Part shown: in pieces, positions 3,636 to 54,526 of the stretch
How the letters are laid out: each line of letters begins with the position of its first letter
How positions within the stretch are numbered: the first letter of the stretch is position 1
IMG/VR virus record: IMGVR_UViG_3300012984_000010
Strand: one strand, 5' to 3'
Length of the DNA stretch: 64,000 nt
DNA from: a virus
Taxonomy: Duplodnaviria > Caudoviricetes
Position numbers and translations under genes: made by a program
The notes under the pieces: model-generated
Seen by the model: only the letters and a program-made list of their open reading frames with translations
The model's database searches: none
Told to the model about the DNA's origin: nothing

Positions 3636-4229
3636 TCAAGCCACTTTGGCTTTGGTGATGTACGGATCCCACTCAGGCGGAGCTTTCCGCGCATCAATGT
3701 AGGGCTCGTTCATCGGCAGCACAGCGGGCTTGACCGGCACTTTCAGGAGGTGCATTCCGCTGTCTGCGAGCAGCAGATTACCCTTCCGATCATTACACGG
3801 GTAGCAAGCCATCACGATATTCGGCCAATCGGTCTTTCCACCTTTTGAACGAGGGAGAACGTGATCGTAGTTGAGCTGAGACATCGGGAGCTTGGTCCCG
3901 CAGTATTGGCAGGTGAAATCGTCTCGAAGACACACGTTGATCTTTGAGAACTTGATCCCACTCTTAACCTTGTTCAACTTGCGACGCAGAACCGCCACCG
4001 CCGGAACCTTCATATCGAAGGACTCCATGTCGGTCCCAATCACCTGGCGCAAAGCTGTACGCAGCTCTTTGAAGGTACTCAGGGTCTGACGATCGATATG
4101 AGCGATCACCTCATCGTACTGGACAATGACTTCCAGTTTTCCTGCAAACATGCGGGTCACTGCGTCTTTCCAGTCAACGATTTCGTGCGGCCTGTAGTGC
4201 TGGTTGAGTATAAGCGTCTGCGTGAACAT
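3636..4229 (-). CDS. HNH endonuclease
   Basis: RDDFTCQYCG, DHVLPRSKGG, NIVMACYPCNDRKGN. Confidence 0.92.
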   Translation of the reverse strand: MFTQTLILNQHYRPHEIVDWKDAVTRMFAGKLEVIVQYDEVIAHIDRQTLSTFKELRTALRQVIGTDMESFDMKVPAVAVLRRKLNKVKSGIKFSKINVCLRDDFTCQYCGTKLPMSQLNYDHVLPRSKGGKTDWPNIVMACYPCNDRKGNLLLADSGMHLLKVPVKPAVLPMNEPYIDARKAPPEWDPYITKAKVA

Positions 4230-4335
4230 CTGTACCTACTTCACTTTACGTCCTCTTTGGGCTCAAATATAACCCATTGGATCCTGATTTGCATCCAAAT
4301 TGTGGGCCTACTACCGTAGTAGACCCACAATTGGT

Positions 4336-4998
4336 TTACCGACTACGCTGATTCTGATTCAGGGGGATGTTGGCCAAAGTAGGCAAAATAGCCTGATTGG
4401 CTTCCTTCTGGGCAGGCGTCAGATTGGCCGACACCTTCAGGTAGTGATGGCTTTCCAACCATTTATCGTACGGAAGATTGCCACGGGTCTTGTTGCATTT
4501 ACGGCAGGCCGACAAGAGATTGGCCTCGATACTAGGACCTCCCACCTCCCAAAGGACCAAGTGGTCAACCGTCAGGGGGATGCCTTCCTTCCCGCCTTTA
4601 CCGCAATAACGGCAAGTGTAGCCGTCCCTAGCAAAGACCTTCCAAGCAATCGAAGACTCGATATTTCGCTGGCTCTTCCTAGTAATGATCTTGGCTAAGG
4701 TTCCGTCGGAAGCCTTGGAAAGGATCTCGGTCTCCAACAGGTCGGTCTGGCGGAGGAAAGTCTCCCATTCGGACGAGCCCATGTTCAGGGTATGGACTTC
4801 CAGCTCATCAGTGCCGTTGAAGCTCACGTCATCCCATTCCTTTTGACTGAAGAAGACTCGGTGCTGGCCAGAAAAGATTCTCCCATGGTCCTCAGGGAAC
4901 AGGGCCAGGTACACCTTGCCATTACCAATCCAGACAGAGCCAGCCAACTGAATGGTGTGGCCGACGTCCAATAGATTAAGATCGTTTAGCTTTGCCAT
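4336..4998 (-). CDS. HNH endonuclease with N-terminal extension
   Basis: RDGYTCRYCG, LTVDH, NLLSACRKCNKTRGN. Confidence 0.88.
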   Translation of the reverse strand: MAKLNDLNLLDVGHTIQLAGSVWIGNGKVYLALFPEDHGRIFSGQHRVFFSQKEWDDVSFNGTDELEVHTLNMGSSEWETFLRQTDLLETEILSKASDGTLAKIITRKSQRNIESSIAWKVFARDGYTCRYCGKGGKEGIPLTVDHLVLWEVGGPSIEANLLSACRKCNKTRGNLPYDKWLESHHYLKVSANLTPAQKEANQAILPTLANIPLNQNQRSR

Positions 4999-5985: not shown

Positions 5986-6339
5986 AATACCCTGGAACCC
6001 CCGCATGGGGCTCCAGGTTCTGTAACACTGGTTTTCAACGTGTACCACACACCTCAGAATTATCCAAACTAGCCCATATTGAAAGGGGCAACCTGAGTAT
6101 CGACCCAAGTACCTAGCCTAGTTGTTTGAATCCTTCTGCCCGGCTTCTAACGGGGACTTCTAGAACCAGTTGGGGCGATAGGTTCCCCTACCGTCCTCCA
6201 CCACCTAAACCGACTTTCGTCGGTCCAAGACTTTTGCTGTTGTCAGCTTCATACACCCTAACGGTCACCAGTTGGGGTACCTTAAGGGCGGGATAGATGA
6301 AAAAGTTCATTTGTCCGTGGGCTGACAGGGGTCAATGTG

Positions 6340-6408
6340 TGCACCAGACAGGATTCGAACCTGCTCACCTCGGGTTAGCGAGATGTGGCGCCATTCCACC
6401 ACCAGTAC
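6340..6408 (-). tRNA. Pseudo-tRNA (irregular anticodon loop)
   Basis: T arm GCAGG-TTCGAAT-CCTGT; 6-nt loop CTAACC; GU-rich acceptor. Confidence 0.5.
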
Positions 6409-24788: not shown

Positions 24789-25079
24789 TCAAGCCGAAAC
24801 CCACAAGCCGTCACGGATGAAACCATGATGGCCGCAAAACGGGCACAGGAGCGAAGGACTGAGAGTCAACGGTTCTTCGGAATGTAGCCTCCAATGCACC
24901 TCAGCAATCAAGCCATCTCTGGCGCACGGAATGTACGATTCATGACCGGCCTCTATCGAACAGTTATGCCGGTAATCTACACCGTTAAGTTCATCGTCAA
25001 TGTACGCTCGACGAATACTGACATCGTTTCCGATATCAACCCACTCTCCACGATGACATCTAACGGTTCCTTGGCTCAT
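24789..25079 (-). CDS. DUF6527-like small Cys/His protein (second copy)
   Basis: LTLSPSLLCPFCGHHGFIRDGLW; family name from memory. Confidence 0.6.
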   Translation of the reverse strand: MSQGTVRCHRGEWVDIGNDVSIRRAYIDDELNGVDYRHNCSIEAGHESYIPCARDGLIAEVHWRLHSEEPLTLSPSLLCPFCGHHGFIRDGLWVSA

Positions 25080-25629
25080 GATGATCCACCTGCTTGGAAC
25101 CTCTGGGTTCCATATACTGGAGGATCTCAGTCAAAGAATATGGCCGGTACTCATGGGAGATTTCTTTCGAATCTACCCCCACATCCACCGACTTGCCCCA
25201 AGGCGGGAGAGAGCCGTGCGAGTGGCCGTACAGCATGATGCTACCGTGGTGAGACTTGTTCCACACCCGCATCCCGTAGTGGAATAGACAGATGAACGGA
25301 TGTTCGTCCGAACGGAGCTCAGCGTAAGACTGGATGCTGTCTACCAAGCCGCTACTCAGCAGGCGATCTCGGTTTTGCTCAACCACCCTATCGTGATTGC
25401 CTAACACCAGGTTCTTCCTGCCGTTGAGTTGTTTGAGGATCTGGACCAGCTGAGGGTATTGGCAAAAAGCCAGATCACCTAGATGCCAAACCGTGTCGGC
25501 CGGGTCCACCTGCCGATTCCAGTTTTGGATCAGAGCCTTGTTCATCTCTTCCACCGAACTGTAGGGGCGGTCGCTGTAACGAATCACATTGGCATGGTGC
25601 CAGTGTGTGTCTGAAGTAAAGTGTATCAA
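25060..25629 (-). CDS. Calcineurin-like metallophosphoesterase
   Basis: SDTH, LGD, GNHD, HGHSH motifs. Confidence 0.93.
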   Translation of the reverse strand: MIHFTSDTHWHHANVIRYSDRPYSSVEEMNKALIQNWNRQVDPADTVWHLGDLAFCQYPQLVQILKQLNGRKNLVLGNHDRVVEQNRDRLLSSGLVDSIQSYAELRSDEHPFICLFHYGMRVWNKSHHGSIMLYGHSHGSLPPWGKSVDVGVDSKEISHEYRPYSLTEILQYMEPRGSKQVDHHEPRNR

Positions 25630-25851: not shown

Positions 25852-26184
25852 ATGCTACTAAGCAAAAATCTGATCCAAACCCTCAACTGGGCCTACGAAT
25901 CCACCGGCTATACCTCAAGGCGGCAAACCTTCCGACCCTTGGAATCAGGAGATATTGAAGTTTCTCTGGAAATCCCAGGAATCGACCCTGCCACGATTGA
26001 GCTGGAGTCCACCACCGAAGTACTGACCGTCAAGACTGGAAGCAAGACCCTCAGGTCTTACCAACTAGCTGACACTATCGATTCAGGCAGCATCTCGGCC
26101 AGCGCTGAGTTTGGGATTCTGAAGATCCTGGTGCCGCTGAAGGCCAAGGAAACACCCAGAAAGATCCCTGTGCTGGTGAGTTGA
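25852..26184 (+). CDS. Hsp20/alpha-crystallin small heat-shock protein
   Basis: LEIPGID...ISASAEFGILKILVP; AAGGAGG RBS; TTGACA at 25806. Confidence 0.85.
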   Translation: MLLSKNLIQTLNWAYESTGYTSRRQTFRPLESGDIEVSLEIPGIDPATIELESTTEVLTVKTGSKTLRSYQLADTIDSGSISASAEFGILKILVPLKAKETPRKIPVLVS

Positions 26185-26186
26185 CG

Positions 26187-26217
26187 ATAGAGCGGGAGTG
26201 TTTCCCGCTCTATTTTT
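26187..26217. terminator. Probable intrinsic terminator between convergent genes
   Basis: ATAGAGCGGGA/TCCCGCTCTAT 11-bp stem followed by a T run. Confidence 0.7.
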
Positions 26218-26834
26218 ATAGAGCCAACAGCAACCGATCTAAACCGATTGCCCAACCAACACCTTCAGCATACCGACCGCCTCCGGCGATCTGCTTCTGA
26301 GCGCCAAGTTTTGGGCAAGAGGCTTCGAAGCCGTCTTCTGTGTAGTACCCTAACCCACGCTTCACGTTTGAATCAAAAACGTAGGTAACACCCAACCTGT
26401 CTAAGCAACTACGGAGCAGGTCTTCTACTTCTAGGCGATCAGATGATCGATCCCCATTCAACAATTCTACCCCTACCTGGGTGAATTCTCGATATCGGCC
26501 CGCCTGTGGACGTTCGTACCGATAACACCTAGAAACGTAGAACACGCGCATAGGCCCACGCTGAGACTTGCTCCATTCGTTGTTCCACATCTCTTGGATA
26601 AGAGCCGTCACCTCAGGGATGAGGCATATGGGACGTGCCTTCTTGTCAGGGAAGCAATACATCTGCTGGAGGATTTCTTCTCCAGCTTTCGCTATGAAGG
26701 TATCCTGTCCCCAGATGACTGGGACGATCACTTCACTGAATTGAGCGTCCGTGAAGCAACCTCCGCAAATCCTCCGTTACACGGGAGAAACGGGCGGCAT
26801 CTTCACCTACAATCAATCGTGTTCCACGTAACAT
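26216..26834 (-). CDS. Minimal HisRS-like class II synthetase core, split by a +1 frameshift near 26753
   Basis: MLRGT...LRRLL in one frame continues as FSEVIVP...LIPEVTA, RCYRYERPQAGRYREFTQ, GGGRY, GWAIGLDRL in the +1 frame. Confidence 0.8.
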
Positions 26835-26851
26835 GATGGTCTCCATTCGGT

Positions 26852-26924
26852 TGGTGGAGCCGTCGGGAGTTGAACCCGAAAAAATTGCTTGCAAAGCAAT
26901 CCTGTAGACCCGCTACACGACCCC
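26852..26924 (-). tRNA. tRNA-Ala(UGC)
   Basis: ATTGC-TTTGCAA-GCAAT; G3:U70; CCA. Confidence 0.88.
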
Positions 26925-26925
26925 A

Positions 26926-27010
26926 TGGTGCTCCAGGAGGGACTTGCACCCCCACGTCACTAGGACATTGGCTTCTAAGACCAACACGGCTGCTATTACG
27001 TCACTGGAGC
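26926..27010 (-). tRNA. tRNA-Leu(UAG)
   Basis: TTGGT-CTTAGAA-GCCAA; CCA. Confidence 0.85.
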
Positions 27011-27484: not shown

Positions 27485-28474
27485 TCATAGTCTATTGAGA
27501 CGATCGATCGCTTTGGTCAATTCGTTTCGTGTGACGGCTAAGCTTAGCCTTACCATCTGAGGGTCTCCGAAAGGAGCGCCATCCATCACATTGACCTTAA
27601 CTCGTTTGGCGTCGAACCTAGGGCCTTTCTGACACCAGCCGAACATGCCAACGGAAGGTTTCGGGATCAACACATCTGGGTTAAGGTCTCGTAACTTCTC
27701 ATGAGCCCAAGCCAGATGATGATACATTTCTCTTGAGAAGGCTTTGCGAAGCTCTGGGTTACGTTTCTCAGCCTCAACGATCGCCAACAAGACTCGTTGC
27801 GAGGCGGTCGAGATCCCAGCAGTGGTGGCTTCTACGAATGAAGTAAGATCGTCATAGTAGACAGGGTTGTGACAAACCACCCACCCTAATCGTAACCCTG
27901 ATAGCCCGTACATCTTAGATGCGCTGAAGACCTGTATATCCCCAAGTGCAGTTAGACGGTAATCGTCTGGCAGGTAACTCTCTGTGTAGTAGGCCGCATC
28001 ATGAATGATTGGCACCACATCTTTGCAGAAAGTTGCTGCTTTGGCTTCTGACAGAACGAACCCGTCAGGATTGTTAGGCATCACCAGCAAGTTGGCGTCT
28101 GCCTTGGTACCGTCAGTCACCGACTTCAATCCGGCCCTGGCCATCATGAACGGGAAAGAGGCCCAATAGGGTTTGCGGTAAGCAACAGATCTTGCCCCAT
28201 GCTGACGGACCGCATGCAGGGCGGCGAAGATGCCGTGCTTTGCTCCTACCGTCATCACCACGGGGGCTTGGTGCCTTTCCTCCAAAAGCTTCACCAAAGG
28301 GCCGTAACCGTTCGGAGGGGCATATTCCCAAATCTTAGGCAAACTCTCAAACGACAATTCATCTAGATCGAAAGTCTGGAGCACCAGCTCGCGGAGTTGG
28401 TGCGGTTCACCTATCCCCAGATCGATATGGTCGGCTGGCAGATGGGTTCGGGCCATCAACACATCGTTGGACAT
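27485..28474 (-). CDS. PLP-dependent aminotransferase (class I/II fold)
   Basis: PNNPDG, HDAAY, SASKMYGLSGLRLGW (PLP lysine). Confidence 0.92.
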   Translation of the reverse strand: MSNDVLMARTHLPADHIDLGIGEPHQLRELVLQTFDLDELSFESLPKIWEYAPPNGYGPLVKLLEERHQAPVVMTVGAKHGIFAALHAVRQHGARSVAYRKPYWASFPFMMARAGLKSVTDGTKADANLLVMPNNPDGFVLSEAKAATFCKDVVPIIHDAAYYTESYLPDDYRLTALGDIQVFSASKMYGLSGLRLGWVVCHNPVYYDDLTSFVEATTAGISTASQRVLLAIVEAEKRNPELRKAFSREMYHHLAWAHEKLRDLNPDVLIPKPSVGMFGWCQKGPRFDAKRVKVNVMDGAPFGDPQMVRLSLAVTRNELTKAIDRLNRL

Positions 28475-28537: not shown

Positions 28538-29008
28538 ATGCGCAAATCTCGCACCCTAAAGGGTGGTTGGGTCTCTCCCGCCGATCTGCCGAAAGGTCCT
28601 AACGGTAGAGCCTTATGTCGGTATTGTTCCACCGAAGTACCGTCCAATCGACGCACCTTCTGTTCCGAAACATGTGTCTCAGAGTGGAAAATACGATCTC
28701 AACCAGGCTACGCCAAACAGCTGGTCAAGCAGCGTGATGATGGGATTTGCCAAATATGTCGCAAGGATTGCTTCGAAGGGTATCGAGGCTCCAGAGCTCA
28801 TAAGAGAATCAAAGGCCTGTTGAGATTGTTCGACATGGATCACACCATCCCAGTTGTGGAAGGTGGGGGATCCTGTGGCCTGGACAATCTGCGTACCTTG
28901 TGTCGTCCCTGTCACCTGATTGTGACTGCTCAGCTGGCCGCTAGGCGAGCTTTCAGACGGAAGAGTCTCAAGTGGTTCGTTGGTGTACGAAAACGAACTA
29001 AACGATAA
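28538..29008 (+). CDS. HNH endonuclease
   Basis: RDDGICQIC, DMDHTIPVVEGGG, NLRTLCRPCH. Confidence 0.92.
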   Translation: MRKSRTLKGGWVSPADLPKGPNGRALCRYCSTEVPSNRRTFCSETCVSEWKIRSQPGYAKQLVKQRDDGICQICRKDCFEGYRGSRAHKRIKGLLRLFDMDHTIPVVEGGGSCGLDNLRTLCRPCHLIVTAQLAARRAFRRKSLKWFVGVRKRTKR

Positions 29009-30441: not shown

Positions 30442-30596
30442 ATTGTTACTGTTTGATACTCTGCCAGTCGAGGGAACTAGTCTCGACTGCTCCCAATCTT
30501 TCGATTGAAGCAGAAGGCCCCGAAGGGCTCTCGAATCTCGAAGGTGCTTTTCCCCACCACAAAGGTAAGGTCTACACGGATTTCTCAAACAATAAG

Positions 30597-30670
30597 GGTG
30601 ACTAACGGGGATCGAACCCGCCTAAGACAGATTCACAGTCTGCCACAATCACCAGATTGCTATAGCCACC
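30597..30670 (-). tRNA. tRNA-His(GUG)
   Basis: GCAGA-CTGTGAA-TCTGT; G-1:C73. Confidence 0.92.
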
Positions 30671-30877: not shown

Positions 30878-30882
30878 ATTCG

Positions 30883-30972
30883 TGCAGTCGAGAGGATTCG
30901 AACCTCCACGCCCATTTTTCAGAGCGACACCTTCTCAGGGTGTTGTGTCTACCATGGTTTCACCACGACTGC
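30883..30972 (-). tRNA. tRNA-Leu(GAG)
   Basis: ACACC-CTGAGAA-GGTGT. Confidence 0.92.
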
Positions 30973-53008: not shown

Positions 53009-54526
53009 TCAACCTTTCAAACACGCTTGAGCCAGCACTTCTTGCTTGCGTGCTCGGCATTGATTGATCAGACGTTGAGTTTCAGCAGAGAAGACTGGGG
53101 GTTCTCTTCTGATGCTACCTTGGTTCGGCGGCAGCACGTCGTCCGATTCCTTGTCGGTGAGAAGGTAGTAGGAATCGAGGGAGATCTGTTCTCCCTCTTG
53201 AGCGATGATGCTGGCCGGCATCCGATGAGCATCCACACCAGGGCGGATGCGCCAAATCACCGGCATGCCTGGAATTGATTCTTTGGCACTCTTGGGTTCA
53301 TCTCCGAACTTCATTGTTGAGAGACTACCACTCTGAGAAAGCTTCCACACCGCCGCCACATCGTCCCGTGAGAAAGTGGGCCACTCTGGCTTGGTGAAGT
53401 AGCCCCCATATCCGTACGCTTGTCGATCCATCGGCCATCGAACCTGCTTACGCAATTCTTCGAATTCGACCGTCAGTTCCTTGTTCCAACCGCTCTCAAG
53501 AGCTAGACGAGGCTCCAACCCTTTCTCCCTCGCCAACGCGACCGTGTAGGTGTAATGACTGCGGACGTTGGCTTCCGAGTCGAACCGGATCCCCGCATCA
53601 CGTCCGGGGTCTTCCGCGATCACCCGCAACGCACTGGGAACGCCAGACATGAGGGTACTGGTGGTGTCGGGCAGGTAGAAGAGAAAGCCTGGAAACCGGT
53701 CTTTCATCGCCGTATAGGCGGCGTAATCGTCGAGATTGAACCGCTGTGGGTGTTCGTGACCCATCGTTCCGACTGGGATCATGTTGAGTTTTTGAGCCAA
53801 CTCAACGTTAGAGGTACGCAGCACACCCGCGTCCTTGATGGCCTTGAGCACAATCTCATGTTGCTCTGAACACGAGACTCCTCGCATTCCGACCTCGAAC
53901 AAGCGATCAGGGTTTTCCACGATACCTACCAGTTCTTTGGCACGTCGGTAAACCCACTCGTAATAAGCCTGCTCACGAACCTCGATATTGAATTGAGGTA
54001 GGAGTTTGATCTTGGATCCTAGGTCGATTGCTAGAGAATCCAGCGTTTCCAGGATGATGTCCTTTTCTCGCTGACAGGTGGCGAATCGAATACGCTCAGC
54101 CAGCTCGGCAGTCTTCCCCGCCTTGTAGAGTGTCGCGAGCTGGATTCGAAAGTTTAGCTGGAGAGCGGTAGGTTCCAACCAGCTTGAAACCGCACTAGGG
54201 CCCTTGGCGAAAAAAGCTGGCTCCCGATTGTAGAACCAGGAACCCTTCGGGACTGAACTGATGCGTAGATTGTCCTTGAGGGAGAAAGCCTTACGAAAAC
54301 CAGCACCTACCTCATAGTTGTGTTGGCTCAAGTAATCGTAATCGGTAGGATCGTTGATCACGTCAGGTAGGAGGTCTTTCACGAACTTCTTGACATCTAC
54401 CGGCATGTAGTGCCAACCATTGACCCCGCCCTTGCGGTGTGAGTAGCCGAAAGTCTCCTCGCGAAGGGCAAAGCCCGCCTCAGCCATCGAAATCTTGTAT
54501 GCGTCTGTACGTAGCAATTTGGTCAT
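53009..54526 (-). CDS. pncB: Nicotinate phosphoribosyltransferase (PncB-like)
   Basis: LLRTDAYKISM, EVGMR, PVGTMGHE, PDTTSTLMSGVP, GIRFDS. Confidence 0.82.
   Translation of the reverse strand: MTKLLRTDAYKISMAEAGFALREETFGYSHRKGGVNGWHYMPVDVKKFVKDLLPDVINDPTDYDYLSQHNYEVGAGFRKAFSLKDNLRISSVPKGSWFYNREPAFFAKGPSAVSSWLEPTALQLNFRIQLATLYKAGKTAELAERIRFATCQREKDIILETLDSLAIDLGSKIKLLPQFNIEVREQAYYEWVYRRAKELVGIVENPDRLFEVGMRGVSCSEQHEIVLKAIKDAGVLRTSNVELAQKLNMIPVGTMGHEHPQRFNLDDYAAYTAMKDRFPGFLFYLPDTTSTLMSGVPSALRVIAEDPGRDAGIRFDSEANVRSHYTYTVALAREKGLEPRLALESGWNKELTVEFEELRKQVRWPMDRQAYGYGGYFTKPEWPTFSRDDVAAVWKLSQSGSLSTMKFGDEPKSAKESIPGMPVIWRIRPGVDAHRMPASIIAQEGEQISLDSYYLLTDKESDDVLPPNQGSIRREPPVFSAETQRLINQCRARKQEVLAQACLKG

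Follow-up and report, generated by a model that had tools for sequence, protein, structure and literature searches.

A putative minimal histidyl-tRNA synthetase gene in a huge soil phage carries a prfB-like +1 frameshift site with a conserved histidine codon

Introduction

To our knowledge, prfB is essentially the only known case of autoregulatory +1 frameshifting in bacteria, and there it is a stop codon that is sensed. Leader peptides with His codons sense His-tRNAHis, as in attenuation of the his operon, and the G-1:C73 identity elements of tRNA-His are read by the catalytic domain of histidyl-tRNA synthetase (HisRS). Engineered minimal class II cores of HisRS, the urzymes of the Carter and Francklyn laboratories, reportedly still activate histidine. 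The prfB motif of E. coli, as quoted in PMC3711429, is AGG GGG TAT CTT TGA C. A 2016 review of frameshifting (PMC5009743), in the part of its text that was available, leaves open whether the shifting that occurs at "hungry codons" has a useful role and does not mention HisRS; histidyl enzymes also go unmentioned in the GeneTack survey. Full-text searches of open-access papers and preprints retrieved no description of programmed frameshifting in a HisRS gene.

Here we analyze a HisRS-like gene that is split between two reading frames in the DNA of a phage. The window, by which we mean the whole 64,000-nucleotide stretch that was analyzed (viral record IMGVR_UViG_3300012984_000010; Duplodnaviria, Caudoviricetes), is part of a huge soil phage. 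The element that would be new here is prfB-type +1 frameshifting in which the sensor is a sense codon, cognate to the enzyme being made.

Results

On the minus strand of the window, the 0 frame opens at an ATG (26834-26832), encodes MLRGTRLIVGEDAARFSRVTEDLRRLL followed by HGRSIQ, and stops at TGA (26735-26733); ribosomes that do not shift would yield a peptide of 33 aa. After a TAA at 26779-26777, the +1 frame stays open from 26776 to the TAA at 26218-26216; the gene uses TGA as its stop in the 0 frame and TAA in the +1 frame. When TTG CTT is read, the C at 26753 is skipped and ACG is read next, the two frames join into one product of 205 aa (...LRRLL-TDAQFSEVIVP...; P0002). The sequence-only reading of this DNA had proposed the same two frames, a break at about 26753 and the same junction, and these are exact. 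The gene's own cluster lies on a contig of 475,623 bp, and the features of the locus are collected in Table 1.

Table 1. Coordinates of the mini-HisRS gene, its proposed shift site and associated features in the window
Feature	Position	Strand	Remark
Ribosome-binding site GGAG	26841..26844	-	6 nt before the start codon; read from the sequence
0-frame part, codons 1-27 (MLRGTR...EDLRRLL)	26754..26834	-	N-terminal strand and helix of the HisRS core
Internal Shine-Dalgarno-like GGAGG	26760..26764	-	Exactly 3 nt (TTG, 26759-26757) from the shift codon
Shift codon CTT (Leu27)	26754..26756	-	Proposed P-site codon; would re-pair with TTC in the +1 frame
0-frame His codon CAC	26751..26753	-	Proposed "hungry" A-site sensor; its first base, C 26753, is the skipped base
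0-frame tail after the His codon (GRSIQ) and TGA stop	26733..26750	-	Sequence
+1-frame part, codons 28-205 (TDAQFSEV...LLLAL), and TAA stop	26216..26752	-	Motif 2, HisA loop, HisB loop, motif 3
GC-rich hairpin	26195..26211	.	Between the convergent mini-HisRS (-) and Hsp20 (+) genes; scores as a plus-strand terminator
tRNA-Ala(tgc) and tRNA-Leu(tag)	26852-26924 and 26926-27010	-	Directly upstream of mini-HisRS
tRNA-His(GTG)	30596..30670	-	G-1 (30670) and C73 (30597) encoded; likely substrate; decodes the sensor codon
tRNA-Leu(GAG)	30882..30972	-	Reads the CUU shift codon; re-pairing with UUC predicted from the anticodon

The Leu and Ala tRNA genes that adjoin the gene, which the sequence-only reading had pointed out, turn out to be members of an array (44 tRNA genes in the window) and have no specific link to the site. 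Within the same array lie genes for a calcineurin-like phosphoesterase (25060-25629, minus strand), an Hsp20-family protein (25852-26184, plus strand), a class I/II aminotransferase with an alliinase-like C-terminus (27485-28474, minus strand) and an HNH endonuclease (28538-29008, plus strand). Two tandem tRNAs with the anticodon CTA (57093-57262, plus strand), one of them 93 nt long, carry the ARAGORN label tRNA-Pyl and are possible amber suppressors, and a tRNA-like gene at 6339-6408 (minus strand) has a two-base "anticodon" (aa) in the ARAGORN output. A metallophosphoesterase lies downstream of the gene in the window and in Pseudomonas cerasi, but as a conserved neighbor it was discarded, having been found in only 3 of 50 loci, all of them from Pseudomonas.

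The joined product matches the Pfam family tRNA-synt_His (PF13393) with 81.6 bits, over a cut-off of 25, and the class II core family PF00587 with 52 bits. With the NCBIfam model hisS (TIGR00442) it scores 157 bits, below the cut-off of 286.75, and with hisZ (TIGR00443) 91 bits, which is below both the cut-off of 271.65 and the hisS score. P0002 aligns to residues 6-149 and 236-317 of the HisRS of S. aureus (1qe0) with no gap over the junction; since residues 150-235 are skipped and the alignment ends at residue 317, the insertion domain and the anticodon-binding domain are absent. The earlier proposal that the shifted product is a HisRS catalytic core alone is supported. Motif 2 reads RYERPQAGRYREFTQ, and its residues R105-Y-E-R-P-Q...R113-Y-R-E-F are invariant in the family, as is the GLDR of motif 3 (G197-L-D-R200). 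The HisA loop KRGLGYY (158-164) and the HisB loop GGGRY (184-188) align with those of S. aureus and T. thermophilus, and all four elements are invariant or nearly so across the family. An AlphaFold2 model of P0002 has a mean pLDDT of 91.5 and places the junction within a predicted helix (residues 11-29, pLDDT 96-98); its best Foldseek hits are the HisRS of E. coli (2el9/1kmm) and Thermus, with TMq values of 0.84-0.88. More than 2,200 related proteins were found, of 112-359 aa, and the sizes of the 120 matches listed (169-281 aa) also indicate that the gene belongs to a family of small enzymes rather than being truncated. The gene probably encodes a minimal HisRS (mini-HisRS), a class II catalytic core of 205 aa that would charge tRNA-His; such an activity is supported indirectly by the retained motifs, by the G-1:C73 of the phage tRNA-His and by the proposed His-codon gate of the gene.

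An identity as HisZ was considered and rejected, as the hisS model scores above hisZ, bacterial carriers of the gene have a separate and longer HisZ-like gene, and no hisG is adjacent in the window. These bacteria also encode a full-length HisS, which makes the mini gene a third paralogue, an extra copy; canonical HisS was absent from both of the phage records searched. This distribution would suit a role of mini-HisRS as a backup in bacteria and as a private charging enzyme in phages. A clade of Pseudomonas, Paraburkholderia, Burkholderia and Chromobacterium sequences (L039-L061), on a long branch, has GGG[AT]Y in the HisB loop in place of GGGRY, and its chemistry may differ on that account. 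This clade retains the proposed His-gated frameshift, and 29 of its 30 members are free of histidine.

To follow the frame break across the family, loci were collected from metagenomes, viral contigs and a single genome of each species, and were classified with a motif-based script; 27 fetched loci for which classification failed (truncated contigs or divergent motifs) were excluded. Among the 105 distinct classified loci, 85 require a +1 shift at codon 27/28, three require one at codon 71/72 and 17 are uninterrupted. The three loci with the later shift (L027, at 1500-2113; L174; L179) are unshifted at the first site and carry GGTG TGT CTT CAT CCC TGA within the conserved VCL|IPE motif; the site at codon 71/72 is an independent origin of the same cassette. 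The 88 shifted loci are related and do not stand for 88 independent events, so that the strength of the comparison lies in the two independent positions and in the long retention of the break. A family tree built by a quick method on 129 columns is poorly resolved, with shifted and unshifted rows interleaved; only two of the 11 changes of shift state on the best tree are required by branches with good support.

Among the carriers are metagenome-assembled genomes of Myxococcota and Acidobacteriota, phage contigs that measure 250-607 kb, and isolates of Pseudomonas viridiflava, P. fragi, P. cerasi, P. syringae, P. amygdali and other Pseudomonas, Burkholderia orbicola, several Paraburkholderia, Chromobacterium vaccinii, Azospirillum lipoferum and Thalassospira xianhensis. 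The cultured Sinorhizobium phage Phosso is shifted too (CGA GGT TGT CTT CAT CGA AGC TGA). Its annotated "histidyl-tRNA synthetase" CDS begins at an ATG of the +1 frame, that is, in the wrong frame; the true start, ATG CTA CGC GGA, is in the 0 frame, 51 nt upstream of the annotated one. In the 469-kb genome of Phosso the gene occupies 4045-4686 of PV764938.1 (2399-3040 of our locus L192), and a tRNA-His gene lies about 225 nt upstream of the true mini-HisRS start. The closest relatives retrieved in the protein search likewise cover only residues ~27-205, or begin with N-termini of the type ...CGG[RCLYF]F[IT]xAGYEE, which are an out-of-frame reading of the same upstream DNA.

The sequence-only reading had left the choice between a programmed +1 shift and a simple indel, to be settled by a search of reads and homologues for the extra base. 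Contigs from three soil DNA runs, possibly the source samples, carry this stretch of the window without an indel, and the same +1 break is present in 88 distinct loci. Moreover, selection acts on both frames. Over codons 2-22, pN/pS is 0.58 in the 0 frame and 0.99 and 1.2 in the others, and over codons 29-49 it is 0.31 in the +1 frame and 1.6 in the 0 frame. All 88 shifted loci have an ATG start, and the consensus of the N-terminal part, M-l-R-G-T-R...G-e-A...lR, is identical in shifted and unshifted relatives. These values indicate that each part is under purifying selection in its own frame, 0 before the site and +1 after it. The idea of a simple indel is therefore refuted by the retention of the break and by the selection on the two frames, and that of a programmed +1 shift at CUU-C gains support.

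The break always falls at the same kind of sequence. In the window the site is CGG AGG TTG CTT CAC GGA, with GGAGG-TTG-CTT-C at 26764-26753, and in the family the cassette begins with an SD-like GGAGG or GGGGG, followed after 3 nt by CTT or GTT and then by CAY. [CG]TT CAY stands at the break in all 88 shifted loci. The P site would hold CTT in 66 loci and GTT in 22; the A-site codon of the 0 frame is CAT in 73 and CAC in 15, and hence His in every one. That the shift might be tied to the supply of Leu-tRNA, as the sequence-only reading had suggested, is not supported, given that 22 of the 88 loci have a Val codon in the P site and the constant features are the His codon that follows and, in most loci, the SD-like element 3 nt upstream, neither of which that reading had pointed out. 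The hexamer ending 3 nt before the P-site codon is CGGAGC in 30 loci, CGGAGG in 27, AGGGGG in six, CGGGGG in five and AGGAGG in three; these five hexamers account for 71 of the 88 shifted loci and occur in none of the 17 unshifted relatives, in which the same Arg is encoded by CGT or AGA and CTT-CAY is lacking. The commonest E-site codon is TAT (23 of 88). A stop directly follows the His codon in 40 loci, and a sense codon does so in 48, including the window (CAC GGA).

In two loci (L006 and L015) the codon that precedes GTT is overlapped by a TAG of the +1 frame, and a stop in the 0 frame comes soon after. These +1-frame stops upstream, together with the 0-frame stops downstream, leave the [CG]TT/CAY pair as the only place for the shift. 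They also rule out CGG AGG, the tandem "rare Arg" codons, as the point of slippage, as the +1-frame stops of the same two loci lie between those codons and the shift codon. No conserved RNA structure was found around the site (consensus energy -0.18 kcal/mol). GGRGGNNNSTTCAY matches the window at just one further position, 53394-53407 on the minus strand, where it is out of register within an intact ORF of 540 aa and was dismissed as chance.

Residue 28 of the genes shifted at the first site is only ever Ile (ATY, 70 loci) or Thr (ACN, 15 loci), a toggle of the +1 codon that is synonymous for His in the 0 frame; at this residue unshifted genes admit V, K, Q, A, R, L and M as well. A T in place of the skipped C, which would give TAY, is found in none of the 88 loci, even though prfB works with U. 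The loci with the second site also carry CAT as the 0-frame codon. In addition, the enzyme itself is nearly devoid of histidine: 80 of 87 joined products have none, and the overall content is 0.04%, as compared with 0.5% in the unshifted relatives and 1.43% in a set of 38 canonical HisRS. In the window, the 43 ORFs that reach 150 aa or more have a content of 2.66%, and each of them contains His. Since the product is His-free, the sensor codon is the only His codon met on the message, and the enzyme could be completed when His-tRNAHis is short.

Discussion

We consider it likely that a prfB-like programmed +1 frameshift, triggered by slow decoding of a His codon, makes the minimal HisRS when His-tRNAHis is short. 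According to the mechanism that we propose, ribosomes would translate 27 codons in the 0 frame, leaving Leu-tRNA (or Val-tRNA at GTT) in the P site, while the GGAGG that lies 3 nt upstream would pair with 16S rRNA and so put strain on the codon-anticodon contact in the P site. With plentiful His-tRNAHis, CAC would be decoded and translation would terminate a few codons on, releasing a short peptide. With scarce His-tRNAHis, the A site would stay empty, the P-site tRNA would slip from CUU to UUC, ACG would be read and the full enzyme would be produced. The enzyme would recharge tRNA-His, presumably via G-1:C73, in a negative feedback of the kind that operates for RF2. The SD-like element would act as the frameshift stimulator, and the rate of shifting would respond to His-tRNAHis. 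With GTT in the P site, the re-pairing to UUC has a mismatch in the first position.

A programmed +1 shift could also take place without any sensing of histidine, at a rate that is constitutive or tuned by the SD-like element, CAY being then a by-product of re-pairing with UUC and of an Ile or Thr codon at position 28. After the slip, C would indeed pair with G34 of tRNA-Leu(GAG), and at position 28 the unshifted relatives, too, have Ile or Thr more often than other residues (7 of 17). In this weaker way the presence of a His codon in the 0 frame could be explained in part, with C serving re-pairing and AY the Ile/Thr preference. However, the U that suffices for prfB is never used here (no TAY in 88 loci), and residue 28 is free in unshifted relatives but limited to His-preserving codons in shifted ones. 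Moreover, the independent second site has also made CAT, and a constitutive shift leaves the near absence of His from the product unexplained. For these reasons we regard a shift that does not sense histidine as unlikely. Much less probable is a shift one codon later, with His-tRNA on CAY in the P site and a stop or slow codon in the A site as in prfB, which would sense release-factor activity and put His at residue 28. Such a shift would leave the length of the +1 product unchanged, and a stop does come right after CAY in 40 of the 88 loci, but the other 48, the window among them, have a sense codon there. Nor could tRNA-His(GUG) re-pair with AUU or ACG, and His is found at residue 28 in no unshifted relative, in a family that avoids His.

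The two frames might instead be two products, with a short His-containing leader peptide controlling a downstream ORF (e.g., from GTG 26731) by coupling or re-initiation. Database gene callers annotate the locus in this manner (a 171-aa ORF), and leader peptides of the his type are a known means of sensing His-tRNAHis. Yet the 27 upstream codons are the homologous N-terminus of HisRS and complete a helix of the fold, the unshifted relatives encode both parts as a single protein, no conserved start codon of the +1 frame lies at RBS distance from GGAGG, and 15 loci have ACN as their first +1 codon; we find separate products highly improbable. As to an error of sequencing or assembly, or a decaying pseudogene, one extra base is the commonest kind of error, but the contigs of three runs show no indel, the same break recurs in 88 distinct loci that include finished isolates and a cultured phage, and both parts are under purifying selection, so that this last explanation has next to no chance of being correct.

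If the His-gated shift is real, it would represent a new kind of regulation, with a sense codon that reports how far one tRNA is charged and thereby governs the synthetase for that tRNA, and it would explain why hundreds of database entries for mini-HisRS are truncated or wrongly started. On balance, we favor the broader view that the cassette is a natural gauge of His-tRNAHis charging, in which one A-site sense codon in a prfB-like site switches on a histidine-free, minimal and anticodon-blind HisRS that restores charging; no natural aminoacyl-tRNA synthetase would be smaller than those of this family. Since the family acquired the cassette on two occasions, +1 shifting gated by a cognate codon may be a general, overlooked means of regulating backup genes of translation and amino acid metabolism. 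A natural class II synthetase of ~205 residues lacking an anticodon-binding domain, as predicted here, would also be relevant to ideas on ancestral and minimal synthetases and to the construction of orthogonal tRNA/synthetase pairs. The system is accessible in culturable organisms, namely Pseudomonas, Burkholderia, and S. meliloti with phage Phosso.

Compared with canonical HisRS (E. coli, 1KMM/2EL9; T. thermophilus, 1ADJ/4RDX), mini-HisRS has the same core fold, motifs 1-3, and the HisA (RGLxYY) and HisB (GGGRY) loops, but it is about half the size, lacks both the ~85-residue insertion domain and the anticodon-binding domain, and is almost free of His. Like HisZ, the regulatory subunit of ATP phosphoribosyltransferase, it is a HisRS paralogue with no anticodon-binding domain, and NCBI names some of its members HisZ; unlike HisZ, it is far shorter and keeps the residues of the catalytic motifs. 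The HisRS urzymes are laboratory constructs, whereas mini-HisRS is a natural and widespread family.

With attenuation at his leader peptides and with the T-box riboswitches of aminoacyl-tRNA synthetase genes, the proposed switch shares the sensing of charged or uncharged tRNA so as to raise the expression of a histidine or synthetase gene. Those systems act on transcription termination or on initiation, through leader peptides with runs of His codons or through direct binding of the tRNA; in contrast, mini-HisRS would rely on a single His codon inside the coding sequence and on a change of reading frame. Also comparable are the CUU AGG C site of yeast Ty1 and "hungry codon" shifting (Gallant; PMC5009743), where a P-site tRNA slips on CUU at a slow A-site sense codon and efficiency varies with the amount of cognate aminoacyl-tRNA available, as it would in mini-HisRS. 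Ty1, however, depends on a constitutively rare tRNA and has no feedback, eukaryotes have no SD stimulator, and only in mini-HisRS is the sensor codon cognate to the enzyme being made.

The proposed site is built like that of prfB. In both, an SD-like element lies exactly 3 nt before the shift codon, the P-site tRNA on CUU slips to a +1 triplet that overlaps it, UAU is frequent as the E-site codon, the site does without downstream RNA structure, and the shift comes early in the gene (codon 27/28 in mini-HisRS, 25/26 in E. coli prfB). In both, too, decoding of the slow A-site codon would depend on the product of the gene itself, which provides the feedback in prfB and is proposed to do so in mini-HisRS. 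The differences are that GUU can replace CUU in mini-HisRS, that the skipped base is C and not U, and that a second site exists elsewhere in the family; the A-site codon is not UGA but a sense codon for His, and it would sense not a release factor but His-tRNAHis.
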